Shown: positions 8,069-49,044, counted from the first letter of the stretch. The stretch is 64,000 bases of DNA from an uncultured Actinomycetes bacterium (GCA_903825765.1 CAIKBU010000091.1:1791-65790), one strand, 5' to 3'. Notes: a model not told the origin generated them from the letters alone. Translations and numbers: made by a program.

Positions 8069-8137
8069 ATTTTTCCTGCCACTGGGTCATATGACTGTTC
8101 GTTGTATGAAAAATTTTCATTCTGAAGGACCTTGTTT

Positions 8138-8431
8138 ATGTCACTTATGTGGAACCGTACCCATGCCTGGGACGACTCCGACTGGCGCTCAGTGGCAGCC
8201 TGTCGCGACACCGAACCAGAGCTTTTCTTCCCAGTTGGCACAACTGGCATGGCGACGGACCAAATTGAGTCCGCCAAGCGCGTCTGCACCACCTGCGACG
8301 CCAAGAAGGCCTGCCTCGAATTCGCTCTGGCTACCAACCAGGAATCGGGCGTTTGGGGTGGTACGACCGAAGATGAGCGTCGCAAGCTGCGCAAGCAGTG
8401 GCTCGCCGCTCGCCGTCGCTCGCAGCTCTAA
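8138..8431 (+). CDS. whiB: WhiB-family redox-sensing transcription factor (WhiB1-like by synteny with pdtaS)
   Basis: Four Cys (AACRD...VCTTCDAKKAC), the GVWGG turn and a basic tail. ATG at 8138 is preceded by GAAGGA; the ORF could also start at 8132 (TTG). Confidence 0.9.
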   Translation: MSLMWNRTHAWDDSDWRSVAACRDTEPELFFPVGTTGMATDQIESAKRVCTTCDAKKACLEFALATNQESGVWGGTTEDERRKLRKQWLAARRRSQL

Positions 8432-9904
8432 CTAGCGATCGCGCCCCGTCGGGACGCGCACCAGTACCTCAGTGCCCCCACCATTGGCGTAGGGCACGGT
8501 TGTCATACTGATTGACCCACCTAATTGACTTCCCACGAGATCTCGGACAATAGAAAGTCCAAGGCTCGTGGCGGTCTCGAGGGAAAAGGTGGGGTCGAGG
8601 CCTCGGCCATTGTCTCGAATTTGAGCCACCGCGGTATCCTTCTCGAGCCAGAGATTGAGTGTCACCACACCGACGTGATCATTGGCCGCGCCGCCGAAGC
8701 CGATGAAGCCATGCTCCACCGCATTGGTGAGAAGTTCAGTAAGCGCGAGAGCGAACGGCGTCGCCAGTTCGCTCGACAACAGGCCGAGCCCGCCATTGAC
8801 GACAATTTCAATAGGGTGCAGCGCGAGGACGGTGTCCTCCACGAGCGCCACAATCGATTCCGTGATCTGATCGAAGTCAACCTCTTCACCCGGTTCGCGA
8901 GATAACACTTCGTGGACCACGGCAATCGAACGAACGCGCCGCTCCGCCTCTTGCAGAGCGATGCGGGTCTCAATCTCGTCAGTGCGACGGCCCTGTAAGC
9001 GGAGCAGTGAGGAAATCGTCTGCAGGTTGTTTTTCACCCGGTGGTGCACTTCACGAACTGCCGCTTCCTTGTTCAGCACCATGCGATTGAGCTGGCGCAC
9101 GTCGGACACGTCACGGAGCAAAATGACCACCCCCGTCACGAGGCCGTGGTTAAAGAGTGGGACGCAGTGAAAGGTGATGGCTACGTCGCGGCCGCCGTCG
9201 ACATCCTCCATAGCCGGTATGCCGTACTCGAGGGCCCGATCAACCACTCGAATACTGAGCCCGAGGTCACTGAAGGTCAATCCCTCAAACGAACTGTAGA
9301 GGCCGAGTCGGTGCAGAGCATTGGTCGCATTTGGCGTCGCAAATTCAATCTGACCAAGTCCATTGAGCAAAATGATGCCGTCACCGACTCGGGGCATCCC
9401 CGGGCCGGCCACCGTGTCTTCGCGAAAGGGAAACGTGGCGTCGGACACCATTGTGCACAGTCGATCAAAAATCGAGAGATAGACCTGCTCATAGAGCGAC
9501 GCTGGTCCGCGCAACTGCCCCTGCAGTCGCACCAGCACACCAATGACCTTGCCGTCGAAGCGGACGGGCAGACACCAGACAGCCATTTCGCCAGTTTCTT
9601 CGTCGAGGGTGACGCTTCCGATGACTCGCTGCTCTGAGAGGAGGGCCTCACGGGCAACTTGCCAGGTAGCCATCGGCTGGACCGTGCCGAGGACGTCCTG
9701 CGCAATCAGCGTGGAACGATTATTGGGCCGGACCTGACCAAGTACGACAAAGTGTTCTCGGTCTCGATCGGGCACGAGCAGCACCATGTCGGAGAACGAG
9801 AGGTCAGCCAGTAGCGACCACGACGCCGTTAGTCGCAGAATGTGGTCAATAGCGGGACCGGTGAGCGTCGTGCGCTGCTCGGCATTTTCAAGCACGGTGC
9901 TCAT
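8432..9904 (-). CDS. pdtaS: Sensor histidine kinase, GAF-PAS-HisKA_2-HATPase (PdtaS-like)
   Basis: H-box EVHHRVKNNLQTISSLLRLQ and C-terminal ATPase (DNGRGL..., SLGLSIV). Convergent and abutting whiB, as I recall for the mycobacterial whiB1/pdtaS pair. Confidence 0.8.
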   Translation of the reverse strand: MSTVLENAEQRTTLTGPAIDHILRLTASWSLLADLSFSDMVLLVPDRDREHFVVLGQVRPNNRSTLIAQDVLGTVQPMATWQVAREALLSEQRVIGSVTLDEETGEMAVWCLPVRFDGKVIGVLVRLQGQLRGPASLYEQVYLSIFDRLCTMVSDATFPFREDTVAGPGMPRVGDGIILLNGLGQIEFATPNATNALHRLGLYSSFEGLTFSDLGLSIRVVDRALEYGIPAMEDVDGGRDVAITFHCVPLFNHGLVTGVVILLRDVSDVRQLNRMVLNKEAAVREVHHRVKNNLQTISSLLRLQGRRTDEIETRIALQEAERRVRSIAVVHEVLSREPGEEVDFDQITESIVALVEDTVLALHPIEIVVNGGLGLLSSELATPFALALTELLTNAVEHGFIGFGGAANDHVGVVTLNLWLEKDTAVAQIRDNGRGLDPTFSLETATSLGLSIVRDLVGSQLGGSISMTTVPYANGGGTEVLVRVPTGRDR

Positions 9905-11247: not shown

Positions 11248-11783
11248 CGTTCCAAAAACGCCAAACCGGCGCCTCCGCTTTTTTCAGGGTGAAATTGCAC
11301 GCCGAGGAAAGAACCTTTCTCAATGACTGCGCAGACGCCTTCCGACGTCGCCACGCTCCATGTCGATTCGGCCACGTAGGAGTGAGCGAAGTAGAACGAC
11401 TGACCCCACGGGTCCACGTCGGCCCAGCCGAGCCGGGGGATGCGCGGTGCGTCGAGGCGAACGACGAAGCCTTCGACAATACCGAGTCCCTTGACGCCAC
11501 CATCTTCTTGACTGGCTTCGAGCGCTAACTGCATACCGAGGCAGATACCGAGCACTGGTTTAGCGGCGGTCACGCGTTGGCGCAGGGCGTCGGCCGCGCC
11601 CGTCTCGTTCAAGTGTTCCATCGCCTGACGCGCCGCGCCGACGCCCGGCAGCACGACAAACGGCGCCTCACTAATCGCCGTCGGATCCGCACTGACCTCG
11701 CTGGTGTGGCCCAGCGTCGTCAAAGCGGCGCGCACGGAACGAGTGTTCCCCGCGCCGTAGTCCACGACAATGACGGTGGTCAC
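11229..11783 (-). CDS. hisH: Imidazole glycerol phosphate synthase, glutamine amidotransferase subunit
   Basis: VVDYGAGNTRSV, nucleophile elbow GICLGMQL, and C-terminal GVQFHPEKS. Confidence 0.9.
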   Translation of the reverse strand: MTTVIVVDYGAGNTRSVRAALTTLGHTSEVSADPTAISEAPFVVLPGVGAARQAMEHLNETGAADALRQRVTAAKPVLGICLGMQLALEASQEDGGVKGLGIVEGFVVRLDAPRIPRLGWADVDPWGQSFYFAHSYVAESTWSVATSEGVCAVIEKGSFLGVQFHPEKSGGAGLAFLERCLSLV

Positions 11784-13303
11784 AATGATCCCTTGGTCGA
11801 CTGCACCGTTGTTTCACTCTTCACCAAGGCCTGACGCATCGCCCGACCAACTGCCTTAAAGGCGGCTTCGGCCACGTGGTGGGCATTCTCGCCCGTCGCC
11901 GTCACGTGCAACGTGATGCGAGCAGTCTGCGCCAGCGACTCCAGCGCGTGGGCCGCCATGCCGGGGTCGGGTGAAATGTTGAGGGTGGCCTTGGCGCGAC
12001 CCGACAGGTCGACGACGGCATGCGCGAGCGCCTCATCCATGGGGACGCGAGACTCACCGTAACGGGCGAGACCCACCCGGGCGCCGAGGGTCTGATCGAG
12101 GGCCTCACCGAAGGTGCGGAAGGTGTCTTCGACGAGGTGGTGGTCACCCGTTTCGAGGTCACCGTGACCTTCCATACGCAGGTCGAGGCCACCGTGGAAT
12201 GCCAGTTGCTGCAGCATGTGATCGTAGAAACCCTCCCCCGTGTTGATGTACACGCGACCCTGACCGGGAATGCGCAGGCGACACGACAGTGTCGTTTCCG
12301 CGGTCGCACGACGGAACAGGCGATAGCCCGGGGAGAGTGGTTCACCAAAGAGTTCAGCGCGAAGACACTCGAGCATGCGGTCGTCGTCAACTTCGTCGCG
12401 GATCGATATCCGCAGTCCGGCGCGGTACGCGCGTAAGACAATGCCGTACGGCAACAGTCGATCGACGAGTGCCTGCGGATTGTCCATCGGAATGAAGAGG
12501 AAGTTGGCGTGCGACGCCAGTGGGGTGAGGTTCATCGCCGTTAGGGCCGCAGCCACTCGGTCACGCTCGGCGTTCTGAGCGGTGACATCAAGTGGCGTTG
12601 TCACGGCGGCGAGCGCCAGAGCGGCGGAGGGGCCCGACACCGACAGTGGCGCTTGGCGGGCGTGAATCAGCGCCGCCGTGTCCGTAGAGGCGAGGGCGTA
12701 GCCCACCCGAGCACCGGCGAGACCGTAGGCCTTCGAAAAGGTCCGCAGCACAATGGCGCCCTCGTTGATATAGGGCGTGCCATCGATCCCCGCGTACTGG
12801 GCGTAGGCCTCGTCAAGGACGAGCTGACCACGAATACCTTCGGGGATTTCGGGAAGTTCACCGGTGGGGTTATTGGGTCGACAGACAAAGACGAGGTCCG
12901 CACTGGCGACATCATCAGTGAGGGTGGCCCCCGCCATGCTGGCGGCGAAGCGATACATGGAATACGAGTCACTCGGCACGGTGGCGACAGTCCCGCCCGA
13001 GGCGTACATCGCTGCGAGGAGGACAATGAACTCGTCACTCCCAGCGCCGAGGCAGACCTGATCAATGGTGACGTCGTGCAGTGCGGCAATGGCCGCCCGC
13101 AGTGGTTCGTAGCGACCACGGTCATAGTCATTAATGTCGGCGAGGGCTTTCGCCACGGCCGCGGGCCGGGCGGTCACCGGTGGCTGCGCGGGGGTGTTGC
13201 CGTCAAAGCGCAGGATCTCGCTGACGTTAAGTCCGAGTCGCTCGGCCAAGTCGGGGGTCGACGTAGGCCACTGGTAGGCCTCGAGAGGTGTCGGCGTGCT
13301 CAT
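11780..13303 (-). CDS. hisCB: Fusion protein: histidinol-phosphate aminotransferase (N-terminal) + imidazoleglycerol-phosphate dehydratase (C-terminal)
   Basis: A single 507-aa ORF. The N-terminal part carries the PLP-lysine motif RTFSKAYGLAGARVGY. The C-terminal part has IGPD motifs GFYDHMLQQLAFHG and GDLETGDHHLVED. Confidence 0.85.
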   Translation of the reverse strand: MSTPTPLEAYQWPTSTPDLAERLGLNVSEILRFDGNTPAQPPVTARPAAVAKALADINDYDRGRYEPLRAAIAALHDVTIDQVCLGAGSDEFIVLLAAMYASGGTVATVPSDSYSMYRFAASMAGATLTDDVASADLVFVCRPNNPTGELPEIPEGIRGQLVLDEAYAQYAGIDGTPYINEGAIVLRTFSKAYGLAGARVGYALASTDTAALIHARQAPLSVSGPSAALALAAVTTPLDVTAQNAERDRVAAALTAMNLTPLASHANFLFIPMDNPQALVDRLLPYGIVLRAYRAGLRISIRDEVDDDRMLECLRAELFGEPLSPGYRLFRRATAETTLSCRLRIPGQGRVYINTGEGFYDHMLQQLAFHGGLDLRMEGHGDLETGDHHLVEDTFRTFGEALDQTLGARVGLARYGESRVPMDEALAHAVVDLSGRAKATLNISPDPGMAAHALESLAQTARITLHVTATGENAHHVAEAAFKAVGRAMRQALVKSETTVQSTKGSL

Positions 13304-14346: not shown

Positions 14347-15200
14347 GACAACAACCTTTCTACGGGCAAGGTCAAGATTGCGGTCGCGCCGCACGCTTGG
14401 AGTTTTGGCAGCAGCGACCACACGTCGCTGGCGGGGACGAGGGCGTGGATGGCCACGAGCCCCTCGGTCGCGAGTGGCACGATCGTCGGCGATCCGGCCG
14501 CGGGCAAAACGGCCAGCACGGCGTCCAGTTCACTGGTGCGCACGTTCATCAAGAGGTAGCGGCTCGACCGTGCCCGCAACACTGACCCGAGCAACGTCGT
14601 CAGCACTTCACGCGATTCACTCGCCTCGGCACCGCGACGCCCCACCAGCACCGCTTGGCTTTCGAAGAGCACCCCGAGCGAACGCAAACCATTGGTACGT
14701 AGGGTCGAGCCAGTCGACACCAAGTCAACAATGGCGTCGGCCAGACCGAGTCGGGGGGCAATTTCCACTGAGCCACTAATGCGCACGATGGAAGCGGTGA
14801 TGCCCTGGGCTTCGAGGAGTCGCTTGGTGAGATTCGGGTGCGACGTGGCAATGCGGCGACCATTGAGGTCGGCCAGGGTGGTGGCGGTGTCTTCCAGGGA
14901 TACCGCAGCCTGTAAGGAGCAACGACCGTACCCGAGCTCCAACAGCACGTCAACATCGAAGTTGTGCTCTTGGACCAAGTCAAGACCGGTAATCCCACAG
15001 TCCACGACGCCGTCTTGGACGTACTCAGGTACATCATCTGCGCGAAGAAACAGCAGATCAATGTCCGCGTTGCGACACGTCGACTGCAGGACCCGCTCGC
15101 CGGGAGCGAGTGGCTCAACACCAGTGGCTTCGAGCAGTGCCCACGATGGTTCGCGCAAACGACCCTTCGATGGCAATGCCATAGTCAGTCGTTGGGTCAT
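14343..15200 (-). CDS. hisG: ATP phosphoribosyltransferase, long form with C-terminal regulatory domain
   Basis: 285 aa with LALPSKGRL at the N-terminus and a C-terminal HisG_C-like domain. Confidence 0.9.
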   Translation of the reverse strand: MTQRLTMALPSKGRLREPSWALLEATGVEPLAPGERVLQSTCRNADIDLLFLRADDVPEYVQDGVVDCGITGLDLVQEHNFDVDVLLELGYGRCSLQAAVSLEDTATTLADLNGRRIATSHPNLTKRLLEAQGITASIVRISGSVEIAPRLGLADAIVDLVSTGSTLRTNGLRSLGVLFESQAVLVGRRGAEASESREVLTTLLGSVLRARSSRYLLMNVRTSELDAVLAVLPAAGSPTIVPLATEGLVAIHALVPASDVWSLLPKLQACGATAILTLPVERLLS

Positions 15201-15484
15201 TGGACCTCCTCCTTCAAGACGGTGCCGTAGCCACCCTCGCCGTATTTGAGTGCGTGAGCCACCCGAGTAACCGTGGCGGTCGACGCACCCGTGAGTCTTG
15301 AAATCTCCTGATACGAAAGACCCTCTCGTACCAGGCGGGCAACCTCAAATCGTTGCCCCATGGCACCGAGTTCAGCGGTGGTGCAGAGATCGTGGAGAAA
15401 GGCCACCATGGCGTCGGGCGACGTAATGGCCACGAAGGCGCTCACCAGCTCGGTGAACTGCTGATTGAAGCGCTCGCTGTTCAT
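15197..15484 (-). CDS. TrpR-like YerC/YecD-family DNA-binding protein; probable his operon regulator
   Basis: 95 aa. HTH YQEISRLTGASTATVTRVA, followed by LKYGEGGY, typical of YerC/YecD. ATGA overlap with the hisG start. Confidence 0.7.
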   Translation of the reverse strand: MNSERFNQQFTELVSAFVAITSPDAMVAFLHDLCTTAELGAMGQRFEVARLVREGLSYQEISRLTGASTATVTRVAHALKYGEGGYGTVLKEEVQ

Positions 15485-20479: not shown

Positions 20480-21622
20480 GTGCCCTCAAACGTGACCTTC
20501 GCGCAAATCTTCCGCCACTGGGGACGACTCGGCATCCTCGGATTTGGTGGCCCACCCGCGCACATCGCCATGCTGCGCACGCTCTGTGTGGTCGACCACC
20601 AATGGCTCTCGGCGGACGAATTCGAACACGCCATTGCGACCACGGGCATGTTGCCGGGGCCGGCATCGACGCAGCTCGCCATCTACTGCGCCTGGCGGTT
20701 ACGGGGCTGGCGTGGCGCCCTCCTTGGTGGCGTGTGCTTCATCGTTCCTGGTCTGATCATGATTGTTGCGCTCTCGGCCCTCTTCCTCGCCCATCACCCC
20801 TCGAAGTTTCTCCTTGGGGCGGCGCTCGGTTCAGGAGCAGTGGTGCCCGCAATTGCCCTCACCACTGCGGCACAGATGATGCCGGGAAGTGTGAAGCAGG
20901 TACGCGCGGACCGCGCCCGCCTGGCACGCTGGGGGTGTTACCTCGTCGCCGGTAGCGTCACGTCCATCGTCGCGGCCCAGTTCGTCGTCGTCACGTTGCT
21001 CGTCTGCGGACTTGTCGAAATCGTTAGTCGCCGGCCAGCCGCTCCTTCGGTGATGGCCGGAGGTCTCCTCGGCACGGCGCACGTTGCGGCTGTCGGTGGA
21101 CTCGGGGCCCTCGCGTTAGTCGCCTTCAAAGTTGGTGCCCTCTCCTACGGTGGGGGCTTCGTCATTATTCCGCTCATGCAACACGACGTGGTGTCGGTCT
21201 ACCACTGGATGACCGGCGTGCAGTTCTTGAACGTCGTGGCCCTCGGGCAAATTACCCCCGGACCCGTCGTGCTCACCACGGCCGCCGTTGGCTACGCCGT
21301 CCACGGCGTCGTGGGCAGCCTGATCGCCACGCTGGTGGCGTTCGGCCCCTCCTTCTTGTTCATCCTCGGAGGGGCACGTCACTTCGAAGCGCTACGCAAC
21401 AACCCGACTGCAAAAGCCTTTCTGGCGGGCGCCGGGCCCAGCGTCATCGGAGCCATTGCCGGTTCGGCGCTGCCATTGGGGCTCTTGCTCGCCCACCTGT
21501 GGCAACTGCCCCTCTTGCTTGCGGCGGCGCTCTGGTTGGGCTGGAAAAAGGGCTCGAGTGTGTACCCTCTCGTACTCGCCGCGGCCCTCGGGGCGCTCAG
21601 CGCCACGTTCCTGCCGGTCTAA
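20480..21622 (+). CDS. chrA: Chromate ion transporter (CHR family, duplicated domain)
   Basis: FGGPPAHIAMLR in the first half and GGGFVIIPLM in the second half; 380 aa and polytopic. Confidence 0.85.
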   Translation: MPSNVTFAQIFRHWGRLGILGFGGPPAHIAMLRTLCVVDHQWLSADEFEHAIATTGMLPGPASTQLAIYCAWRLRGWRGALLGGVCFIVPGLIMIVALSALFLAHHPSKFLLGAALGSGAVVPAIALTTAAQMMPGSVKQVRADRARLARWGCYLVAGSVTSIVAAQFVVVTLLVCGLVEIVSRRPAAPSVMAGGLLGTAHVAAVGGLGALALVAFKVGALSYGGGFVIIPLMQHDVVSVYHWMTGVQFLNVVALGQITPGPVVLTTAAVGYAVHGVVGSLIATLVAFGPSFLFILGGARHFEALRNNPTAKAFLAGAGPSVIGAIAGSALPLGLLLAHLWQLPLLLAAALWLGWKKGSSVYPLVLAAALGALSATFLPV

Positions 21623-22329
21623 CTCTTCACCCGCAGCGCACGAAGATAGGGTGCGGCAACGGCCCGTTGCACCTGACTCGGGTGCAAGGTCAAGAAAAGG
21701 CGAAACTGTTGTCGTGCGAGGGCCTCGTTGTGAGGAGTCACCGTCGCCACAATCGCGTAGTAGAGGTGGGTCGCCGGATCGTTCGGTCCGTAGTGCACGG
21801 CAGAGCGCAGGAGACTCAGGGCCTGGGCCACGACCGCCGACGAGCGTGACGCACTCCCCGCGGAGAAGTCCAGCCATCCCGTTTCGGTAAGGGCGACGGG
21901 GTTGTGAGGATCGAGCGTGAGCACCTTCGCGTAGGCGGCGAGGGCCGCGATGTCGTTCCCCGTTGACACGTCCGCTTGTCCTTCGTTCAACAGTTGCGAA
22001 ATCTGTTGCGCACGGTTCACCACGACCCCGCCGGTTTGCGACGTACCGGCTTGGCGCAGGGAAACATTGATCCAAACGAGCCCCACCGCCGCGAACGCGA
22101 AACAACTGAGTGCGACCACGAGCCGTGAGGTGCGACGACGACGGACCTTCGCCACCGGTTCGGCGACCTTGGGGAGCGCTTCTCGAGCCCGACGAAGCGC
22201 CGCCTCCTCACGAGCAACAATGGCATCGAAGGTGGCCTCATCGAGTTCCCCCGCGTCGAACTCTCGATGTGCATCGGTGAGCGAGGCCTCCCGGAGAGCG
22301 ATTTCGTCGCGCAGGCGTTGCGAGTTCAT
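21619..22329 (-). CDS. ccmI: CcmI/CycH-like TPR protein with one TM anchor
   Basis: The start ATG forms an ATGA overlap with the ccmH stop. TM segment LVVALSCFAFAAVGLVWI is followed by TPR-like repeats. The assignment rests mainly on context. Confidence 0.5.
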   Translation of the reverse strand: MNSQRLRDEIALREASLTDAHREFDAGELDEATFDAIVAREEAALRRAREALPKVAEPVAKVRRRRTSRLVVALSCFAFAAVGLVWINVSLRQAGTSQTGGVVVNRAQQISQLLNEGQADVSTGNDIAALAAYAKVLTLDPHNPVALTETGWLDFSAGSASRSSAVVAQALSLLRSAVHYGPNDPATHLYYAIVATVTPHNEALARQQFRLFLTLHPSQVQRAVAAPYLRALRVKS

Positions 22330-22706
22330 CGTCGCCTCAATCGAGCCACGATTGCCAAGGCGACAACCAGCAGTGCGAGGGGAGCTACCCACAACACAGT
22401 GGTCAGACCACCGTCGGGCGGCGTCAGGAGCACCGTTGGTCCATAGGCGCGCTCAATCGCGGTGAACACCTGGGTATCGGAGTCACCCGCACGCACCATG
22501 GCGGTAATTTGCGCCCGTACCGCCAATGAGCTCGCCGCGGTGCTCTGGGCCACGGAGAGATTGTCACAACTAGGGCACTTCACCAATGTCTCGAGGTGGG
22601 CCACTCGGGTCTGCCACGTGCTCGGCGCCGAGGGGGTCACGATGACCGAGCCAACGACCAGCACCAGGGCGAGACACCAGAAGCGAAACGACGAAAGCAA
22701 GGTCAT
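22326..22706 (-). CDS. ccmH: Cytochrome c-type biogenesis protein CcmH
   Basis: Signal/TM segment, then VKCPSCDNLSVAQS (CXXC), and a C-terminal TM. Confidence 0.75.
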   Translation of the reverse strand: MTLLSSFRFWCLALVLVVGSVIVTPSAPSTWQTRVAHLETLVKCPSCDNLSVAQSTAASSLAVRAQITAMVRAGDSDTQVFTAIERAYGPTVLLTPPDGGLTTVLWVAPLALLVVALAIVARLRRR

Positions 22707-23230
22707 GACACTCTCGAAACAATCGCGTTCAGTTGACCCTGCGAGGCTGGGCCCACCAGCGTCGCGACGACGCGTCCACTGCGGTCAATGACGAACGTGG
22801 TCGGCGGGGCGGTGACCCCGTAGTGGAAAGCAATGGCACCTTGTGGATCGGCGACGGAGGGGAACAGTGCGCCGTAGTAGCGGGCAAACGACCGTGCGGA
22901 GGCCACGGTGTCGTTGTAGACCACGCCAACAACCTTTACGTGCTGACCTCGATGCGCCCAGGCGAAGGAGGAGAGGTTCGGTGACTCCTGTTTGCACGGC
23001 GCACACCACGACGCCCAGAAATTGAGTACCACGATGTTTCCGCGCTCGTTGTGCAGCGAGACCCTCCCGCCGTCGATCGATGTCGCCGTGAAGTCAGGGG
23101 CCAGGGTGCCCAGCAGCGGCGAGTGCACCGCGGTGGCGTCAATGGGTGGTCGTGTCGCGAGGAGGAGCGTGAAGCCAATGACCAGCACGACGAGCACCAG
23201 CGCCACGAGGGCTATCGTCCGACGCCTCAC
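22703..23230 (-). CDS. ccmG: Thiol:disulfide oxidoreductase CcmG/DsbE (TlpA/ResA-like)
   Basis: N-terminal anchor and thioredoxin motif NFWASWCAPCKQE. Confidence 0.8.
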   Translation of the reverse strand: MRRRTIALVALVLVVLVIGFTLLLATRPPIDATAVHSPLLGTLAPDFTATSIDGGRVSLHNERGNIVVLNFWASWCAPCKQESPNLSSFAWAHRGQHVKVVGVVYNDTVASARSFARYYGALFPSVADPQGAIAFHYGVTAPPTTFVIDRSGRVVATLVGPASQGQLNAIVSRVS

Positions 23231-25185
23231 GTGGTGGCCTCATCGCTCGAGCGGCGACGCCCGAGTGTCAGTGCACTCCCCAACCCAATGATCAACCCAC
23301 CAATCCAGAGCCACGAGAGCAACGGTTCAACGGTGACGCCGAGTACGACCGCTCCCACCGGAACGTTGGTCTGCACTTGCGCTCCCGACGTCGAGCCTCC
23401 CTGCCCCACCGCGTCGAAGGTGATGTACACGTCGCGCAGAACGTTCGAAGAAATCGCGGGCGTCCCCACGGCCTGACTTCGTCCGTTGAACGTCGTAATA
23501 GCGGGTTGCAGGGGGGTGCCATCAACCGTTACGCGTACCAACGTTTGCTTCTCGAGAGCGGTTGTGCGCTGCGCAAAACCGCTGAAGCTGATCGTGTGAC
23601 CATCGACCACGGTGCGTTGATGTGGCGACAACGTGACCTCCGTGCGTGACGTGTAGGAGGTCGAAACAACGATGCCGACCGCGAGAATGACGACACCGAG
23701 GTGCACCACCATGCCGGCCGTCGAGGGTGAGCGAAGTACCGACCATACGTCACCCCGACGACGCGCTGCGGTCACGTTGTTGGTTAGGGTTCTAAGTGCT
23801 GCTCCGGCCGCCGCGACGGCCAGGAACACCACCGCTAACACCGCGTAGTGACGGATTCCAGCGAGTTCGAGCAACACCACACTGGCCACGCAGACCCAGG
23901 CCGTGACGCGCGCGCGACGCCACAAGGTCGGGGCGTCAAAGCGTCGCCAACTGACCAGCGGAGCAATCCCCATTAGGGCGAGCAGAGCAATGCTCCCCGG
24001 AGCGGCCACCGCGGCAAAATAGGGCGTTCCGACGGTGACTTGGACACCATTGATCGCTTGGTAGAGCAATGGAAATGCGGTCCCGAGCAGTACGACAAGG
24101 GCGAAACCCACGAACAAAATGTTGTTCATGACAAAGAGCCCTTCACGGGAGAAGGGGCTGTCGACCCCTACGGCGGTGCGTAGTTCGTCGCCCCGCCAGG
24201 CAATAAGCCCGAGTCCGCTGATCAAACTGAGGCCGAAGAACCCGATAAGGACGGGGCCGAGGGTCGACGACGAAAACGCGTGCACGCTTTGGAGGACGCC
24301 CGACCTCGTAAAGAACGTGCCCAGTACCGTGAGCGAGAAGGTGCCCACGGCCAACGAGAGATTCCACACTCGAAACAGCCCTCTGCGGTCTTGCACGACG
24401 ACGGAGTGAATGTAGGCCGTCGCCGTTAGCCACGGCAACAAGGCCGCGTTCTCCACGGGGTCCCACCCCCAAAAGCCGCCCCATCCGAGAACTTGGTAGC
24501 TCCACCACGACCCGAGCACGATACCCACACTGAGCGAACCCCAGGCCAGGACCGTCCATCGACGCTGCTCAATGGGCCACTGCTCGTGCACGCGACCGCT
24601 GAGCAGCATTGCCATCGCGAAGGCGAAGGGCACGGTGAATCCGACGAAGCCCGAATACAGCAGCGGTGGGTGAATGGCGACGAGGGGATTGTCTTGCAAC
24701 AGGGCATTCGGACCAGCGCCCTGCAAGACGTGGACCGGATTGAGCAGGAAGGGATCGGCGGGCCCGACCATCAGGAGCAAGAAGAATCCCGCGACAATGA
24801 AAAGGACCATCGTCGCGTAGGCGACAACCATATCGGTTCGCTGACGACGGTAGTAAAACACCACCGCCACGACCAGTAGGCCCAGAATCAGTGACCACAG
24901 CAGCAGTGATCCCTCGAGGGCTGACCACATGCCGGTAATTGAGTAGAGCAACGGGGTAAAGGTCGCGTTGTTCTCCGCGACGTACGCCAGCGAGAAGTTA
25001 TGACTAATCAGGGCGGTTTGCATGGCCCCTACGGCCACGACGATGCCAGCCAACGACACGAGCGCGGCGGGCATGGCGAAGGAACGACGTTGGCCTCGAG
25101 CGCACCGCAATTGATTAATTGCGCCTGCGACAGCCCCGACGAAGGCAATGTCGAGGCCGATTCGTCCAATCCAACTGAGTATCAC
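23227..25185 (-). CDS. ccmF: Cytochrome c heme lyase subunit CcmF
   Basis: 652 aa, polytopic, with the WWD motif WGGFWGWDPVENAALLPWL. Confidence 0.9.
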   Translation of the reverse strand: MILSWIGRIGLDIAFVGAVAGAINQLRCARGQRRSFAMPAALVSLAGIVVAVGAMQTALISHNFSLAYVAENNATFTPLLYSITGMWSALEGSLLLWSLILGLLVVAVVFYYRRQRTDMVVAYATMVLFIVAGFFLLLMVGPADPFLLNPVHVLQGAGPNALLQDNPLVAIHPPLLYSGFVGFTVPFAFAMAMLLSGRVHEQWPIEQRRWTVLAWGSLSVGIVLGSWWSYQVLGWGGFWGWDPVENAALLPWLTATAYIHSVVVQDRRGLFRVWNLSLAVGTFSLTVLGTFFTRSGVLQSVHAFSSSTLGPVLIGFFGLSLISGLGLIAWRGDELRTAVGVDSPFSREGLFVMNNILFVGFALVVLLGTAFPLLYQAINGVQVTVGTPYFAAVAAPGSIALLALMGIAPLVSWRRFDAPTLWRRARVTAWVCVASVVLLELAGIRHYAVLAVVFLAVAAAGAALRTLTNNVTAARRRGDVWSVLRSPSTAGMVVHLGVVILAVGIVVSTSYTSRTEVTLSPHQRTVVDGHTISFSGFAQRTTALEKQTLVRVTVDGTPLQPAITTFNGRSQAVGTPAISSNVLRDVYITFDAVGQGGSTSGAQVQTNVPVGAVVLGVTVEPLLSWLWIGGLIIGLGSALTLGRRRSSDEATT

Positions 25186-25664
25186 CGAACGCTGCCGTTC
25201 TTGGCCTTCACGCGATTGGGATGCGCGGCGATGTAATTGGCCGAGTGTTTCACCAGTATTTGAGTACCCGCAAAGTGCATCGACCGTGCCGACACAAAAT
25301 GACCAACGACGACGACCGGAATGTTGGCCTGAAACAACTGCGGCGGGGTGCCCGTCACGTTCACCGGCACGCGAGCCCCTTCGGATCCATCCATCACGAA
25401 CGACGTGCCCACCGCGGTACGAGTGATGGTGCCCTTTTGCACAATCCCTTCAAGACGCACGGTATCCGTGCCGTAGTGCTGCTTCTGCGCGAGCACCTCA
25501 TCGACGGTGACGAAGTAATTCAGATTGCGCAATAAACCCTGGCTGAGGAGGAGGCCGACGGCCCCGACGAGAACCACCAGAACGCCCACCGTTCGACCAT
25601 TGCTCGAACGCTTGCGCGGTGCGGGGACGACGGGCGTCAGATCAACGCGGTCACCCTCGTCCAC
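25182..25664 (-). CDS. ccmE: Heme chaperone CcmE
   Basis: N-terminal anchor, OB-fold, and heme-binding VKHSANY (HxxxY). GTG start. Confidence 0.85.
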   Translation of the reverse strand: MDEGDRVDLTPVVPAPRKRSSNGRTVGVLVVLVGAVGLLLSQGLLRNLNYFVTVDEVLAQKQHYGTDTVRLEGIVQKGTITRTAVGTSFVMDGSEGARVPVNVTGTPPQLFQANIPVVVVGHFVSARSMHFAGTQILVKHSANYIAAHPNRVKAKNGSVR

Positions 25665-25746
25665 TGCGCCCCTTCCACCAGAGGGAGAGGCCGTAGAGGG
25701 CCGGGGCCCCGAAGGCGAAGATGTAGCCAGCGATGACGTAGTGCAT
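25651..25746 (-). CDS. ccmD: Small membrane protein CcmD (31 aa; below the ORF-track size cutoff)
   Basis: Hand translation gives MHYVIAGYIFAFGAPALYGLSLWWKGRSGRG. There is a TAATG junction with the ccmC stop and a 14-nt overlap with ccmE. It occupies the canonical position between ccmC and ccmE. Confidence 0.5.
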   Translation of the reverse strand: MHYVIAGYIFAFGAPALYGLSLWWKGRSGRG

Positions 25747-26471
25747 TAGGCGCCTTCTCGTTGCCGCTCGACCACGGCCGCGGCGAGGTGCGATTGCATG
25801 GCTTGGTCACTGCGCACTTCGAGGCGATAGCGAGCTCGAAGGAGCCAGAAATACCAGAGGGTGAACGCGATGAAACTCAAGAGGAGTGTCCACAGCATCG
25901 AGCCGTGCACCGAGACCTTGCCCGATACCGTCAGGACCGTGGCGTTCTGGTGCAGGGACTTCCACCAGGTCACGGCGAAGTGGATAATTGGCACGTTCAA
26001 GGCGACCAAGATGCCGTACACGGCACTTCGGCGGGCCCGCGTCTGTGGATCATCGTTCGCCCGACGAAGCGCCAGATACCCGAGGGCCAAGACCAGCAAA
26101 ATCGCCGTCGAGGTCAATCGAGCATCCCAGGCCCACCACACCCCCCAGGTGGGGCGACCCCAGATAGAGCCAGTAATGAGCGTCAACGCAATGAAGAGAA
26201 CACTCACTTCCATCGCGCAGTAGGCCACTCGGTCCATGGTGTCGGAGCGCGTGCGCTTCCATAAGTACAGCGCGGAGGCAATGGTGGTCGTTCCAAATGA
26301 TACGTAGAGAGCCACCCAGGCCAAGGCGGGGTGGACGTAGAGCATGCGAACCAGGTCGCCACCGCCGTCATGCATGGTGGCCTTTGGCGTCACCCAGAGA
26401 CCGAGGATAACTGTCGCCACCAACGTCAAAAGAGTGAGCGGGCCGAGCAGCCGTTGCGTCACTTTATTCAC
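25746..26471 (-). CDS. ccmC: Heme exporter/handling protein CcmC
   Basis: Tryptophan-rich motif WGRPTWGVWWAWDARL. Confidence 0.9.
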   Translation of the reverse strand: MNKVTQRLLGPLTLLTLVATVILGLWVTPKATMHDGGGDLVRMLYVHPALAWVALYVSFGTTTIASALYLWKRTRSDTMDRVAYCAMEVSVLFIALTLITGSIWGRPTWGVWWAWDARLTSTAILLVLALGYLALRRANDDPQTRARRSAVYGILVALNVPIIHFAVTWWKSLHQNATVLTVSGKVSVHGSMLWTLLLSFIAFTLWYFWLLRARYRLEVRSDQAMQSHLAAAVVERQREGA

Positions 26472-27127
26472 TATTCCTCCAAGACCCCGTAGAGCAAAAC
26501 GCCGATGGCCACGTAGCCCGCGAGGGCGACGAGGTCAATGACCCACCACTCCCACAGTGCTCCCCCGTGTAGGGCAGCGCTGAAGGAACGCTCACCCGCC
26601 ACCAACAGTGGGGCAAAGGCCGGCAGGGCCAGGATGGGCAACAGCGTTGCCGGACCTTCGTTCCCTGCGGACAATGCTCCGTAGAGCGTACCAGCGCAGG
26701 CCATCGCACCAAGCGTGACGAGCACGCTCGGAACTGCGTGCACGGTCCCTATCAATGAGGTGTGCAAGACCACCACCGTGCCCGCAAGCAGCAGGGTCGC
26801 GCTAGCCCACAGTTCCAGGGTGAGGGCCATGGTTTTACCTAAAAAGACTCCCGCCGGATCGAGGCCGAGGGTGGCCACCGACTCGGCGGTGCCCACCGTT
26901 TGCTCCACCGCCTGAGAGCGATTGATCATCAAGAGTGCCACGAAGAGCGTGACGAGGTAGAAGAGCCCCGGCGCGGCTCGTGAGTGACCCGCGTCAGCGG
27001 GACCGAGGGCGAGGCCGCACAGCAGCAGGGCGAGCGCACCAAAGGGCACGACCTGCCACAACAGGACGCGACTGCGCATTTCAATGCGAAGGTCCTTACG
27101 AGTTACCAACCAGGCCGTGCGAATCAC
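26471..27127 (-). CDS. ccmB: Heme exporter permease CcmB
   Basis: 218 aa with 6 hydrophobic spans, located between ccmA and ccmC. Confidence 0.75.
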   Translation of the reverse strand: MIRTAWLVTRKDLRIEMRSRVLLWQVVPFGALALLLCGLALGPADAGHSRAAPGLFYLVTLFVALLMINRSQAVEQTVGTAESVATLGLDPAGVFLGKTMALTLELWASATLLLAGTVVVLHTSLIGTVHAVPSVLVTLGAMACAGTLYGALSAGNEGPATLLPILALPAFAPLLVAGERSFSAALHGGALWEWWVIDLVALAGYVAIGVLLYGVLEE

Positions 27128-27768
27128 GACGCCTCCACGATGCGGCCACCGGCCATCACGACAATGTCGGGCTCGAGGGACGTCGACCGAAGTACGTCGT
27201 GGGCACTCATGACCACCGTGCCCCCACCGCGCTGCACGTCATCGAGGAGTTCGTCGAAAAACCGTCGCCCCTCGTCATCCAGCGACGCGTACGGCTCATC
27301 GAGGAGCCAAAGTTCGGCGCGCCGCACCAACAGCCAGGCGAGGCTCAACCGGCGGCGCTGTCCGGCGGAGAGGTCTTTCGTGCGAACGTCACTGCGGTGA
27401 GCGAGTCCGACCCGTTCCAGCGCGGGAGCAATCTCGTCGAGTGGGCGCTGTAGCGCGGTGGCGGCGAAGACTAAATTCTCCCGCACGCTGAGGTCTTGAT
27501 AGAACGAACCGTCGTGCCCGAGCCAACCAACGCGGCGGCGAACCTCCGCATGTTGACTCACGAGGTCCACACCGAGCACCGTGGCGGCACCATGCGTTAC
27601 CGAAAGGACGCCCGCCAGGAGCCGGAGCAGACTCGTCTTTCCCGATCCGTTCGCCCCCGTGACCACCGTCAACGAGCCCGTGGCGAGCGACAAACTAACG
27701 CCGCTCAAGAGTGGAAACTGCTGCTGCACCGCGACGACGTCGCGCAGTTCGGCCGCTGAGGGGGACAT
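27124..27768 (-). CDS. ccmA: Heme exporter ATP-binding protein CcmA
   Basis: Walker A GANGSGKTS, signature LSAGQRRR, Walker B LWLLDEP; about 210 aa, as expected for CcmA. Confidence 0.8.
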   Translation of the reverse strand: MSPSAAELRDVVAVQQQFPLLSGVSLSLATGSLTVVTGANGSGKTSLLRLLAGVLSVTHGAATVLGVDLVSQHAEVRRRVGWLGHDGSFYQDLSVRENLVFAATALQRPLDEIAPALERVGLAHRSDVRTKDLSAGQRRRLSLAWLLVRRAELWLLDEPYASLDDEGRRFFDELLDDVQRGGGTVVMSAHDVLRSTSLEPDIVVMAGGRIVEAS

Positions 27769-27773
27769 CGTCG

Positions 27774-28787
<1,014 letters not shown>

Positions 28788-43419: not shown

Positions 43420-44199
43420 TTAGGGTGCGGGTTGGACAGCGGCAGCCGCGGTCGACACTTTCGTCTTCCGACGAATCTTGCGACCCAGCCACGCCACGGG
43501 ATCGTAGTGAGCGTCCACCACTCGCTCCTTCAGCGGAATAATGGCGTTGTCCGTGATGTGGATACCCTCGGGACAGACTTCCGTGCAGCACTTGGTGATG
43601 TTGCAGTAGCCCAGTCCAGCGTCTTCACGAATGAAATCGCGACGGTCGTTGGTGTCGAGGGGGTGCATTTCCAGTTCGGCGTAGCGGATAAAGAAGCGTG
43701 GACCGGCGTAGTTCAGCTTGTTGTCCTCGTGGTCGCGAATGACGTGACAGACGTCCTGACACATGAAGCACTCAATGCACTTACGGAATTCCTGACCGCG
43801 CTCGACGTCCTCTTGGAACATGCGGTAGCCACCCTCGGGCATCGGTGGTGGTAACAGAGCGGGGACCTTTTCCGCCATCCGGTAGTTGAACGAGACGTCC
43901 GTCACCAGGTCGCGAATAATCGGGAACGTCTTCATTGGCGTCACGGTGACGGGGCCCTCGGGGAGTTGGTCCATACGCGTCATGCACATCAGACGAGGCT
44001 TCCCGTTGATTTCCGCGGCGCAGGATCCACACTTGCCCGCCTTACAGTTCCAGCGGCACGCTAAGTCGGGGGCTTCGGTCGCCTGGATACGGTGAATCAG
44101 GTCGAGGACCACTTCACCTTCGTTTTGCGTCGTGGTGTAGTTCTCGAAGTCCCCACCACTCGCATCACCTCGCCACACGCGCAGTGTTACGTCAGTCAT
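43420..44199 (-). CDS. sdhB: Succinate dehydrogenase/fumarate reductase iron-sulfur subunit
   Basis: 2Fe-2S CKAGKCGSC; 4Fe-4S/3Fe-4S CIECFMCQDVC and CTEVCP. Confidence 0.9.
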   Translation of the reverse strand: MTDVTLRVWRGDASGGDFENYTTTQNEGEVVLDLIHRIQATEAPDLACRWNCKAGKCGSCAAEINGKPRLMCMTRMDQLPEGPVTVTPMKTFPIIRDLVTDVSFNYRMAEKVPALLPPPMPEGGYRMFQEDVERGQEFRKCIECFMCQDVCHVIRDHEDNKLNYAGPRFFIRYAELEMHPLDTNDRRDFIREDAGLGYCNITKCCTEVCPEGIHITDNAIIPLKERVVDAHYDPVAWLGRKIRRKTKVSTAAAAVQPAP

Positions 44200-46013
44200 T
44201 ACTTTGCCTCCTCGAGCAGCGCCTTAAGTTCGGCAGGAATTGGAAGAAGGGGTGACTCGGCCGTGGTGATGGGGCTGTCCCAGTTGCCACCGTCACTCGA
44301 GTGCGCCAGGTTGAAGGTACCAAAGTGGTCATCGGCCTTCGGGAAGTCCTCACGAGTGTGTCCACCGCGAGATTCTTTGCGCAAGTTCGCACCGAGGGCC
44401 ACGCACTTCGACACCGTCAGCATTGCGGGCAGGTCTGTCGCCAGGTTCCAGCCCGGGTTGTACGCCCGTCCACCCTTGACCTTGATGTTCTTCACTCGCT
44501 CAGTGAAGACGTCGAGCTGGGCGATGGCGTCAACCAGTTCGCTCTCGGTGCGGATAATGCCGACGTTAGCCTGCATCATTTCCTGGAGGTCGCGCTGGAT
44601 GTCGTACGGGTTCTCACCGTCTTCCTTTTCGAACGGGGCCAGGGCCCCGGCAATGGCCTCTTCTACTTCGGCCATGTTCATCGTGTGGGCAACTGCGCCA
44701 GCCTCGATGTACTCCACCGCACCCATACCGGCACGGCGGCCGAAGACGATCAGGTCGGAAAGGGAGTTTCCACCCAAGCGGTTGGCGCCGTGCATACCAC
44801 CGGCGACTTCACCGGCGGCGAAGAGACCCGGTACTGACGTGGCGGCCGTTTCGGCATCGACCTTGACGCCACCCATGATGTAGTGGTTGGTCGGTCCGAT
44901 TTCCATCGATTCCTTCGTGATGTCCACACCGGCAAGTTCCATGAACTGGTGGTACATCGAAGGCAGACGGCGACGAATGAATTCCGCCGAGCGGCGCGAA
45001 CCGATGTCCAGATAGACACCACCGTGGGGGCTACCGCGACCGGCCTTGACTTCAGCGTTGATGGCGCGTGCGACTTCGTCACGAGGCAGCAACTCTGGCG
45101 GGCGGCGACCGGCGGTGTGGTCGTCGTACCACTTGTCGGCTTCTTCTTCCGACTCGGCCGTCTCGGCGCGGAACATCGGGGCGACGTAGTTGAACATGAA
45201 TCGTTCGCCGAGGCTGTTGCGCAACACACCACCGTCACCACGAACACCTTCGGTGACCAGGAGGCCGCGAACGGAGAGCGGCCACACCATACCCGTCGGG
45301 TGGAACTGAATGCACTCCATGTCGATCAGCTCAGCGCCGGCCCAGAGAGCCATCGCGTGACCGTCACCGGTACCTTCCCACGAGTTCGACGTGAACTTCC
45401 ACGACTTACCCGAACCTCCGGTCGCCAGAATGATGGCCTTCGCGCCAAACGTGAGGAACTCTCCCGTGGGACGGTCGTAGGCGACACAGCCCGCGATGCG
45501 GCCCTCGGTGTCGTGCACGAGCTTCAAGACCTTGCACTCCATGAAGACATCGGTCCCCATAGAGACCACCTTCTGCTGAAGGGTACGAATCAGTTCCAGA
45601 CCCGTACGGTCACCAACGTGCGCCAAACGGGCGTACTTGTGACCGCCGAAGTCACGCTGCAGGATCTTTCCATCCTTCGTGCGGTCGAACAAAGCGCCCC
45701 ACTGCTCAAGCTCGAGGACTCGCTGCGGCGCTTCCTTGGCGTGGAGTTCGGCCATGCGGTAGTTGTTGAGGTACTTACCACCACGCATGGTGTCGCGGAA
45801 GTGGACCATCCAGTTGTCCTCGGCGTAGACGTTGCCCAGGGCAGCGGCCATACCGCCTTCGGCCATCACGGTGTGTGCCTTACCGAGCAGTGACTTGGTG
45901 ATCAGGGCAACTCGCAGGCCCTTCTGCTTGGCCTCGATGGCGGCACGAAGCCCGGCGCCACCGGCGCCGATAATGAGTACGTCGTAATCGTGGTGCGCAT
46001 TCGTCACGGTCAT
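44199..46013 (-). CDS. sdhA: Succinate dehydrogenase/fumarate reductase flavoprotein subunit
   Basis: FAD-binding VLIIGAGGAGLRAA; covalent-FAD His region KAHTVMAEGG; 604 aa. Confidence 0.95.
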   Translation of the reverse strand: MTVTNAHHDYDVLIIGAGGAGLRAAIEAKQKGLRVALITKSLLGKAHTVMAEGGMAAALGNVYAEDNWMVHFRDTMRGGKYLNNYRMAELHAKEAPQRVLELEQWGALFDRTKDGKILQRDFGGHKYARLAHVGDRTGLELIRTLQQKVVSMGTDVFMECKVLKLVHDTEGRIAGCVAYDRPTGEFLTFGAKAIILATGGSGKSWKFTSNSWEGTGDGHAMALWAGAELIDMECIQFHPTGMVWPLSVRGLLVTEGVRGDGGVLRNSLGERFMFNYVAPMFRAETAESEEEADKWYDDHTAGRRPPELLPRDEVARAINAEVKAGRGSPHGGVYLDIGSRRSAEFIRRRLPSMYHQFMELAGVDITKESMEIGPTNHYIMGGVKVDAETAATSVPGLFAAGEVAGGMHGANRLGGNSLSDLIVFGRRAGMGAVEYIEAGAVAHTMNMAEVEEAIAGALAPFEKEDGENPYDIQRDLQEMMQANVGIIRTESELVDAIAQLDVFTERVKNIKVKGGRAYNPGWNLATDLPAMLTVSKCVALGANLRKESRGGHTREDFPKADDHFGTFNLAHSSDGGNWDSPITTAESPLLPIPAELKALLEEAK

Positions 46014-46016
46014 TCC

Positions 46017-46829
46017 TTAGAAGATGTGGTAGTTAGTGATGGCGCCGGAGGCGACGAGACGTACGTAGACGTCCGTCAACGCGACAAAGACAAGTGAGGC
46101 CCACGCGAAGTTCATGTGCTTCGCGTTCAATGGCGTCACGAACTTCCAGAGGCGGAAACGGATGGGGGCCTTCGAGAAGCTCTTCAGGTTGCCACCACAG
46201 AGGTGACGACAGGCGTGGCACGACAATGAATAGAGCCACAACAAGGTCGCGTTCACGCAGAGGACCACGGTACCGACCGTCACACCGAAGCCCGAACCAG
46301 GAAGATCAAAGGCACGGATAGCGTCGTAGGTAAGCAGCGCGTTGAAGACGAGACCAGCGTAAAAGAAGTAGCGGTGCGCGTTCTGCATCAGAAGTGGGAA
46401 TCGCGTCTCACCCGAGTAGCTCTCGTGCTTGTCCGACACGGCGCATGCGGGGGGTGACCACCAGAACGCGCGGTAGTAACTCCGGCGGTAGTAGTAGCAC
46501 GTCATCCGAAATCCCAGGGGGAAGATCAAGATCAAGAATGCTGGCGATAAGGCCCAGTGGCTCACCGTGAACGCACCGAACTTCGCGCCAGCCACGCAAC
46601 TGCTGGACAAGCAGGGAGAGTATAACGGGCTAATGAGACTGCCGGGTTCGTAGAAGTAGTTGTGCGGGTTGAAGGCCGACCAAGTCGCGTAGATAATGAA
46701 GGCCGTCAACACCGAAACGGTAATGACGGGCTGGAGCCACCACCGGTCCGTGCGCAAGGTGGCGACGTCGGGTCCACCGCGCGTCCCTCCCAGTACAACT
46801 TTGGCTGCATGTTCGGTTGTTGACACCAC
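46017..46829 (-). CDS. sdhC: Succinate dehydrogenase membrane anchor, single large cytochrome b subunit (mycobacterial Sdh1-type arrangement C-A-B)
   Basis: 270 aa with about 5 TM spans and conserved His residues. Lies directly upstream of sdhA (3-nt gap). GTG start after GGAGACA. Confidence 0.7.
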   Translation of the reverse strand: MVSTTEHAAKVVLGGTRGGPDVATLRTDRWWLQPVITVSVLTAFIIYATWSAFNPHNYFYEPGSLISPLYSPCLSSSCVAGAKFGAFTVSHWALSPAFLILIFPLGFRMTCYYYRRSYYRAFWWSPPACAVSDKHESYSGETRFPLLMQNAHRYFFYAGLVFNALLTYDAIRAFDLPGSGFGVTVGTVVLCVNATLLWLYSLSCHACRHLCGGNLKSFSKAPIRFRLWKFVTPLNAKHMNFAWASLVFVALTDVYVRLVASGAITNYHIF

Positions 46830-46951: not shown

Positions 46952-47344
46952 TTAGTGCGTGCCGCCTCGGCGACCCTCTCCAATACCACCGAGGAAGGCC
47001 CATCCGGCGAGAGCCAAGCCCGGTACCAGTAACCAGACACCAAACACCAACGCTAAGACGGTGAAGAAGGCACCCATTCCTAAGACGAAGGGAAAGATTG
47101 AGGAACCGGGGAAGGTGTCGATGACACCGGCGCCCTCGGCCTGCGTCGCGTTGGGATTGTCCTCCGGACGCTCCTTCATTCGACGGCTCCACCAGTAGTA
47201 GTAGCTACCGGGCAAGAAGCACAGCAACATACCCGCGAACATCATCACGCCACCGGCGTTTTCGAGGCTCCAGTTCCAATAGACCGCGCACATTGCTCCG
47301 AAAAACAAGCCGAGGAATAGCAGCATCTTGGCTTCTACCTTCAT
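46952..47344 (-). CDS. ctaF: Cytochrome c oxidase subunit IV (actinobacterial CtaF)
   Basis: 130 aa with 4 TM spans. ATGA overlap with the ctaD stop. The N-terminus MKVEAKMLLFLGLFF is typical of CtaF. Confidence 0.75.
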   Translation of the reverse strand: MKVEAKMLLFLGLFFGAMCAVYWNWSLENAGGVMMFAGMLLCFLPGSYYYWWSRRMKERPEDNPNATQAEGAGVIDTFPGSSIFPFVLGMGAFFTVLALVFGVWLLVPGLALAGWAFLGGIGEGRRGGTH

Positions 47345-49041: not shown

Positions 49042-49044
49042 TTG

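Follow-up and report, generated by a model that had tools for sequence, protein, structure and literature searches.

In a 64,000-nt stretch of DNA from an uncultured actinobacterium (GCA_903825765.1, CAIKBU010000091.1:1791-65790; this whole stretch is called the window hereafter), the genes for cytochrome c maturation (ccm) at positions 21619-27768 very probably form an intact, canonical and functional System I operon, a native part of the chromosome in an uncultured member of the Acidimicrobiales and typical of this lineage. The operon encodes the proteins CcmA to CcmH and a ninth protein with a tetratricopeptide repeat (TPR) domain. All catalytic residues of the Ccm proteins are in place, and the same arrangement is found in the related species.

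Organization of the ccm operon

In the open reading frame (ORF) listing of the window, nine consecutive minus-strand ORFs fill the interval 21619-27768 exactly. An initial annotation of this DNA had proposed nine coupled ccm genes here, and both the ORF listing and the family matches described below confirm this. The genes and the roles predicted for their products are:

ccmA, 27124-27768, minus strand: 214 aa; ATPase of the heme-release ABC complex
ccmB, 26471-27127, minus strand: 218 aa; permease subunit of this complex
ccmC, 25746-26471, minus strand: 241 aa; WWD-domain protein, heme presentation to CcmE
ccmD, 25651-25746, minus strand: 31 aa; single-pass membrane peptide
ccmE, 25182-25664, minus strand: 160 aa; membrane-anchored heme chaperone
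ccmF, 23227-25185, minus strand: 652 aa; core of the holocytochrome c synthase
ccmG, 22703-23230, minus strand: 175 aa; membrane-anchored thioredoxin-like thiol reductase
ccmH, 22326-22706, minus strand: 126 aa; CxxC subunit of the synthase, without a CcmI fusion
ninth gene, 21619-22329, minus strand: 236 aa if read from the ATG at 22329; protein anchored by a single membrane span, with its TPR domain outside the cytoplasm

The start and stop codons of neighbouring genes overlap by 4 nt at the ccmA/ccmB, ccmE/ccmF, ccmF/ccmG and ccmG/ccmH junctions and by 1 nt at the ccmB/ccmC and ccmC/ccmD junctions. The overlap of ccmD and ccmE amounts to 14 nt, provided that the GTG at 25664 is the true start of ccmE; it is uncertain whether this codon or one a few positions downstream is used.

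Related loci were obtained by a search of the GTDB species representatives with the CcmF protein. Of 600 candidate stretches, at least 577 contain a gene for a relative; the best 80 species were analysed. These loci bear on the start of the ninth gene, whose ORF is listed as 21619-22392 with a GTG start at 22392. The ATG at 22329 overlaps the stop codon of ccmH by 4 nt, and because an equal overlap recurs in 63 of 67 related loci, this ATG is most likely the start codon rather than the upstream GTG.

Family assignment of the Ccm proteins

Searches with the Pfam and NCBIfam models matched seven of the nine proteins to families far above chance. CcmA scored 167.9 bits with TIGR01189 (cut-off 131.6) and matched PF00005 (4.9e-28); its translation carries the Walker A motif GANGSGKTS and the ABC signature LSAGQRRR. 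CcmB matched PF03379 (2.4e-17) with 63.5 bits against a cut-off of 24.9, and it is 27% identical to the CcmB protein of Escherichia coli; under the NCBIfam equivalog model TIGR01190 it stayed below the cut-off (30.1 versus 156.2). For CcmC, matches were obtained with PF01578 (2.1e-26), with TIGR01191 (2.3e-46) and with the structure of the E. coli protein (PDB 7F02, 4e-26). CcmE matched PF03100 (4.5e-19) and CcmH matched PF03918 (4.4e-22).

CcmF was recognized by PF16327 (9.6e-47), PF01578 (7.2e-32) and TIGR00353 (1.2e-116), and residues 9-641 matched the structure of the Thermus thermophilus CcmF protein (PDB 6ZMQ, 1.1e-101). CcmG matched the families AhpC-TSA (8.7e-27) and Redoxin (2.2e-22); its top NCBIfam matches were ResA (2.9e-29) and DsbE (1.2e-23), both under the cut-off.

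Conservation of the catalytic residues

The motifs quoted in the initial annotation, among them the two CcmA motifs, HxxxY, WCAPC and CPSC, were all found in the translations. The ccm proteins of E. coli K-12 were then aligned pairwise with the window proteins, and conservation was counted in the orthologues from related genomes. Across 68-80 species-level relatives, the His, Trp, Tyr and Cys residues required for catalysis show little or no variation.

The Walker A residues G41, G43, K44 and T45 of CcmA are kept in 67 of 68 relatives. In CcmC, H47, H174 and the segment W109-R118 align with H60, H184 and the WWD motif of the E. coli protein. Both His residues and the four checked Trp residues of the WWD motif are invariant in 73 relatives, and the Asp of the motif (D116) is a Thr in four of these 73. 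H140 and Y144 of CcmE correspond to H130 and Y134 of the E. coli HxxxY motif, and this pair is invariant in 80 of 80 sequences. CcmF aligns H172, H260, H302, H495 and its WWD motif with H173, H261, H303, H491 and the WWD motif of the E. coli protein; the four His residues and the WWD motif are invariant in 77 relatives. The thiol motifs are equally well preserved: C76 and C79 of CcmG (WCAPC) align with C80 and C83 and are kept in all 77 relatives, and C44 and C47 of CcmH (CPSC) align with C43 and C46 and are kept in 76 of 77. A misalignment of the His and Trp residues of CcmC, CcmE and CcmF, which the initial annotation had named as a possible flaw, is ruled out by these pairwise alignments.

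CcmD and the ninth protein

The CcmD peptide is 33% identical to E. coli CcmD over only 21 aligned residues. Its gene lies between ccmC and ccmE, and the peptide has a single hydrophobic helix and a basic tail, all of which would suit a CcmD. A CcmD-like mini-ORF with the pattern M-x-YV-x-AGY ... WWRGRR is present in 77 of 79 related loci, where it starts no more than 4 nt from the ccmC stop codon. The closer subclade (loci L001-L048), to which the window belongs, has peptides of 27-31 aa; those of the distant subclade (L049-L080) mostly have 49-68 aa and carry an additional tail rich in Pro, Glu and Ala.

Directly after ccmH a membrane-anchored TPR protein is encoded. It consists of an N-terminal segment of about 65 residues, one hydrophobic helix (RLVVALSCFAFAAVGLVWINV) and a TPR-like domain. 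The Pfam search and a profile search of the PDB gave only weak generic TPR matches. The window protein had no ccmI match at E ≤ 0.01 in NCBIfam, and the ccmI model TIGR03142 gave weak matches in two of 35 orthologues, the better one with E = 0.0011. An hhalign comparison paired residues 121-234 with residues 233-342 of E. coli CcmH, which form its CcmI-like TPR part (27.6% probability, E = 6.5e-4).

With 437 proteins at E ≤ 1e-5 this is a small family. NCBI lists its members as 'hypothetical protein', and JGI uses the names 'hypothetical protein', 'TPR repeat protein' or 'CcmH/NrfG'. The protein is 236-254 aa long in most of the closer subclade and 263-328 aa in most of the distant loci; L016 and L020 encode a version of 321 aa and L080 one of 415 aa. 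We call the ninth gene CcmI-like because of where it stands, conserved and translationally coupled to ccmH, and because of its architecture, rather than on proof of family membership. The conserved gene could be annotated as a Ccm component instead of as 'hypothetical protein'.

Distribution of the operon among related species

Synteny in the best 80 loci was tabulated by tblastn as far as each contig reaches. The colinear order from ccmA to the ninth gene is common to all 80 loci where the contig allows it. CcmF was detected in 80 loci, CcmC and CcmE in 79 each, CcmG and CcmH in 76 each, the ninth gene in 75, CcmB in 73 and CcmA in 70. The CcmF proteins of these 80 GTDB species are 53-75% identical to that of the window. 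The labels of 74 of the 80 species are Acidimicrobiales, Acidimicrobiaceae, Ferrimicrobium or general actinobacterial ones, and peat and bog metagenomes are the source of many of them.

An identical CcmF protein is present in JGI data under the name 'cytochrome c-type biogenesis protein CcmF'. All 120 CcmF homologues among the matches listed are at least 69% identical, and many are named CcmF/NrfE; their organism labels are usually Acidimicrobiales, Acidimicrobiaceae or Actinomycetota, with a few Acidobacteria. The organism of the window is thus placed in the Acidimicrobiales (class Acidimicrobiia, phylum Actinomycetota) and is not a relative of Mycobacterium or Streptomyces.

Six of the 80 loci (L001, L027, L047, L065, L040 and L043) are labelled Acidobacteria or Acidobacteriota, 'Candidatus Saccharibacteria' or 'uncultured bacterium'. 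They carry an Acidimicrobiales-type ccm operon, with the GDP-mannose 4,6-dehydratase gene gmd where the contig reaches that far, and their CcmF proteins are 63-75% identical to that of the window. Because the ccm order is shared at comparable identity, the taxonomy labels of these bins are probably wrong.

The initial annotation had considered a System I operon unusual in this setting, and this view did not hold. The same operon is found in the best 80 species and CcmF is already annotated, and the locus is therefore ordinary for its lineage; a System I that is common and annotated among close relatives was what the initial annotation itself had named as evidence against its view. Mycobacterium, Corynebacterium and Streptomyces do differ in this respect, as had been pointed out; this difference, however, separates classes of the phylum and does not single out the locus.

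Gene neighbourhood

The actinobacterial setting that had been claimed for the operon was recovered, with whiB, pdtaS and ctaF all identified in the window. Two features outside the ccm genes are of interest here:

gmd, 27774-28763, minus strand: GDP-mannose 4,6-dehydratase (PF16363, 1.1e-132), 5 nt upstream of ccmA and co-oriented with it
ctaC-ctaD-ctaF, 46952-49905, minus strand: aa3-type cytochrome c oxidase with matches to COX2, COX1 and Cyt_c_ox_IV (PF12270), outside the operon

A gmd homologue is situated upstream of ccmA in 65 of the 80 related loci, and because of this linkage gmd and the ccm genes may form one ten-gene transcript, of which gmd would probably be the first gene. No terminator-like site was found in the interval between gmd and ccmA; the promoter and terminator scan as a whole gave counts at background level. 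The only sizeable gap upstream of gmd is a divergent region of 63 bp before the glycosyltransferase gene at 28827. A functional reason for the linkage of gmd and ccm is not obvious.

The actinobacterial-type ctaF gene (PF12270) covers 46952-47344. The other neighbours in the window are housekeeping genes, namely the his operon, cysS, a class I tRNA synthetase gene, gltX, sdhAB and pntAB. Several further observations were made on the flanking genes. The whiB-like gene (8130-8435, plus strand), whose ORF ends at 8435, and pdtaS (8432-9904, minus strand) are convergent and share 4 nt at their 3' ends. In the his operon, a minus-strand ORF of 507 aa (11780-13303) contains an aminotransferase class I/II domain (HisC-like, residues 135-310) and a HisB domain (residues 355-489); it looks like a HisC-HisB fusion, or possibly an artefact of a start codon or a frameshift. 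A protein of 95 aa from the Trp repressor family (15197-15484, minus strand; PF01371, 9.4e-23) is encoded directly upstream of hisG with a 4-nt overlap, and its gene appears to be the first of the his operon.

Between sdhA (44199-46013) and ctaF lies a minus-strand ORF of 270 aa (46017-46829) with a membrane-like composition (GC content at first codon positions 0.49) and no Pfam match, which is possibly the membrane anchor of succinate dehydrogenase. The plus-strand gene at 53459-54640 encodes a protein of 393 aa with N-terminal DoxX/DoxD membrane matches and a C-terminal Rieske [2Fe-2S] domain (residues 310-380); no cytochrome b or c gene stands beside it. At 61000-64000 the GC content falls to about 0.575. 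This part holds two small unassigned ORFs, a gene for a DUF6036/AbiEii-like nucleotidyltransferase (62520-63074) and, from 63247, an ISL3-family transposase gene. The ENA contig L082, which has the same sequence, ends at the ISL3 transposase about 3 kb past the window. The region is probably a small mobile or variable one at an assembly break.

Origin of the operon

Two origins of the operon were considered. It could be a long-standing part of this lineage, or it could have been acquired recently by horizontal transfer, for example from Proteobacteria. In favour of a recent transfer there is only general background: Goldman and Kranz reportedly proposed in 1998 that Deinococcus and archaea had obtained entire ccm clusters horizontally.

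The composition of the operon speaks against such an event. Its GC content of 0.61-0.64 falls in the range of the whole window (0.57-0.65), the GC content at third codon positions (GC3) of the ccm genes (0.72-0.77) is comparable to that of the other window genes, and by both measures the operon is indistinguishable from its flanks. Its neighbours are the tightly packed housekeeping genes described above, and no mobile-element gene lies within 35 kb; the sole one in the window is the ISL3 transposase gene at the far right end. Furthermore, the operon, together with gmd in most loci, has been kept across species whose CcmF proteins have diverged to the identities given above.

The relatives outside the clade point in the same direction. 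CcmF was searched against 1.84 billion cluster representatives, among which the whole Acidimicrobiales clade is collapsed. The next full-length CcmF clusters outside the clade show 42-46% identity, and the named ones come from metagenome-assembled genomes of Actinomycetota/Acidimicrobiaceae and from Chloroflexota (Limnocylindria), whereas CcmF of E. coli reaches 32-38% and that of Deinococcus 41%.

A neighbour-joining tree without support values places the clade of the window among CcmF clusters labelled Actinomycetota. The initial annotation had suggested that a CcmF phylogeny might reveal a donor clade; the tree yielded this grouping. One cluster (P0141; P0342, P0343) contains a CcmF protein from Serinicoccus sp. 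CUA-874 (Actinomycetes, Micrococcales) that is encoded on a 13-kb contig and is 42% identical to that of the window; this is either a sporadic System I in the class Actinomycetes or a contaminant contig.

A recent horizontal transfer was rejected on the grounds of composition and conserved synteny, and we consider it extremely improbable. The earlier proposal that the genes are native and not a recent insertion agrees with GC, GC3 and the conserved synteny including gmd. Because the composition matches the window, the synteny is conserved and the nearest outside CcmF proteins belong to Actinomycetota and Chloroflexota, the data argue for a long residence in the lineage and for the absence of a recent proteobacterial donor.

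Predicted pathway and substrate

The following pathway is modelled on the paradigm of E. coli and Rhodobacter. CcmC, with its WWD domain and H47/H174, and CcmD would present heme at the outer membrane face to the anchored CcmE, which would bind it covalently at H140. The CcmAB ATPase/permease would then release holo-CcmE, which would hand the heme to the WWD site of CcmF. In CcmF, H172 and H302 are predicted to serve as outer ligands, and H260 and H495 may bind a b-heme by which the incoming heme is kept in the reduced state.

On the side of the apocytochrome, the anchored proteins CcmG (C76/C79) and CcmH (C44/C47) would keep the CXXCH thiols reduced, with CcmG supplying the reductant, and the ninth protein probably holds the apocytochrome in the fashion of CcmI. 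In the final step CcmF, CcmH and the TPR protein would attach the heme to the reduced CXXCH motif by thioether bonds. As the host is a Gram-positive-type cell, all steps are expected to take place at the outer face of the cytoplasmic membrane. A hydrophobic segment that serves as an anchor is seen in each of the translations of CcmE, CcmG, CcmH and the ninth protein.

The pathway probably acts on the c-type cytochrome that donates to the CuA-containing aa3 oxidase, whose genes lie 19 kb from the operon. CtaC carries the CuA-type motif CTQLCGLYHSYM and no CXXCH motif of its own; the CuA-type motif therefore implies a c-type cytochrome donor, which would be encoded outside the window, as would a CcdA/DsbD-type protein that supplies the reductant. 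By analogy with other Actinomycetota this donor may be of the QcrC type. The CXXCH scan of the 80 related loci gave 11 matches, of which about four coincide with the position of ccmH and the others are single motifs; no c-type cytochrome gene adjoins the operon in these loci.

Alternative interpretations

Several points weigh against the reading of the locus as a canonical, functional System I operon of long standing. No ccm model of Pfam or NCBIfam recognized CcmD or the ninth protein. CcmB, CcmC, CcmE, CcmF, CcmG and CcmH remain under the strict NCBIfam equivalog or subfamily cut-offs and obtain no formal equivalog assignment; scores below the cut-off are expected since the lineage is divergent. 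A search of all six frames of the 64-kb window found no CXXCH protein in a real gene, and no CcdA/DsbD gene is present there; for this reason we infer both the substrate and the reductant supply. The CcmF tree has few labelled tips in addition to its missing support values. Finally, the biochemical activity of the Ccm proteins of Acidimicrobiia is deduced from their sequences.

We considered whether the cluster might not make c-type cytochromes at all and might instead encode a heme exporter for detoxification or an NrfEFG-type lyase dedicated to one special cytochrome. There is a precedent for the exporter in an Actinospongicola isolate that encodes CcmABC, which has been read as a protective heme exporter against heme toxicity (PMC12263773), and the lyase finds some support in the matches of CcmF to the NrfE model TIGR03145 (1.2e-110) and of CcmH to the NrfF model TIGR03147 (2.7e-16). 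A pure exporter would, however, have no use for CcmE with its HxxxY motif, the four-His CcmF, CcmG and CcmH, all of which are present, coupled and strongly conserved. The lyase is hard to reconcile with a single CcmF/CcmH set encoded in one operon with ccmABCDE, and no nrfA-like CXXCH/CXXCK gene occurs nearby, be it in the window or in the 80 related loci. Moreover, the window also encodes the cytochrome c oxidase with its CuA-type motif. Both variants therefore appear very unlikely, and we retain the view that the operon serves the maturation of c-type cytochromes.

A further alternative concerns the taxonomic setting. System I could be an anomaly within the Actinobacteria that has replaced System II (ResB/CcsB, ResC/CcsA and CcdA) or coexists with it. 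Reviews assign System I to Gram-negative bacteria, archaea and plant mitochondria and System II to Gram-positive bacteria and mycobacteria (PMC3601427, PMC13170271, PMC9145763), and apart from the mention of CcmABC in Actinospongicola we found no literature on System I in Acidimicrobiia. Among the about 60 proteins of the window Pfam detected no ResB (PF05140), no CcsA-type System II gene and no CcdA/DsbD, which is compatible with a replacement, the 64 kb being a small part of the genome. On the other hand, species of the same order regularly carry the operon, and it has already been annotated there, so that it is no anomaly for this genome. An old difference at the level of the class fits the data, but it is a statement on taxonomy and not on this locus. 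Besides, other Gram-positive bacteria carry annotated Ccm genes, as Sulfobacillus thermosulfidooxidans does with CcmE and CcmB (PMC6315122). We therefore regard an anomaly as rather unlikely and treat the operon as the normal equipment of its order.

A broader proposal, which we put forward tentatively and to which we give slightly less than an even chance, is that the Acidimicrobiia rely on System I alone, with a minimal CcmD of 29-31 aa and with a lineage-restricted single-helix TPR subunit in the place of canonical CcmI. If this is true, cytochrome c maturation in the Actinomycetota is divided by a deep split at the class level, and the Acidimicrobiia show System I occurring naturally in cells of the Gram-positive type.

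Comparison with known systems

The locus itself matters little, as it is a textbook System I whose genes are already named and which is the norm in its order. Of wider relevance is that many species of the Acidimicrobiales have a complete System I, contrary to the generalisation on Gram-negative and Gram-positive bacteria made in the reviews.

The operon resembles ccmABCDEFGH of E. coli K-12 (b2201-b2194) in the gene order from A to H, the translational coupling and all catalytic residues, at pairwise identities of 27-38%. It differs from it in several respects. CcmH of E. coli is a fusion of 350 aa with a CcmI-like TPR part, whereas the CcmH protein of the window has 126 aa and is followed by the separate ninth gene; CcmD has 31 aa instead of 69 aa; the operon is preceded by gmd and not, as in E. 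coli, by the nap genes; and the host is a Gram-positive-type actinobacterium without a periplasm bounded by an outer membrane.

In having a small separate CcmH followed by a membrane-anchored TPR protein, the operon is similar to the System I of Rhodobacter and Pseudomonas. In canonical CcmI, a cytoplasmic loop connects two membrane helices. The ninth protein of the window has one helix and reaches the score of no CcmI model.

Among the proteins of solved structure, CcmF of T. thermophilus (6ZMQ) is the best relative, and CcmF of Deinococcus radiodurans is 41% identical to that of the window. Like the host, Thermus and Deinococcus stand outside the Proteobacteria, on which most work on System I has been done, but their phylum is another one. 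System I* of archaea and Desulfovibrio, in which CcmE has a CxxxY motif and CcmH is missing (PMC3601427), is another Ccm system found beyond the classical Proteobacteria. As the operon encodes a CcmE with HxxxY and a CcmH with CxxC, it represents standard System I and not System I*.

System II of Mycobacterium, Corynebacterium and Bacillus does an equal job, the attachment of heme to CXXCH outside the cytoplasmic membrane, and occurs in the same phylum. The WWD domain is common to CcmC, CcmF and CcsA, which is reflected in weak matches of the window proteins to TIGR03144 (1.4e-09 and 3.5e-06), and CcmG scores best against the ResA model. Unlike in System II, however, the WWD proteins of the window are clearly of the CcmC and CcmF types and are accompanied by CcmABDEH.

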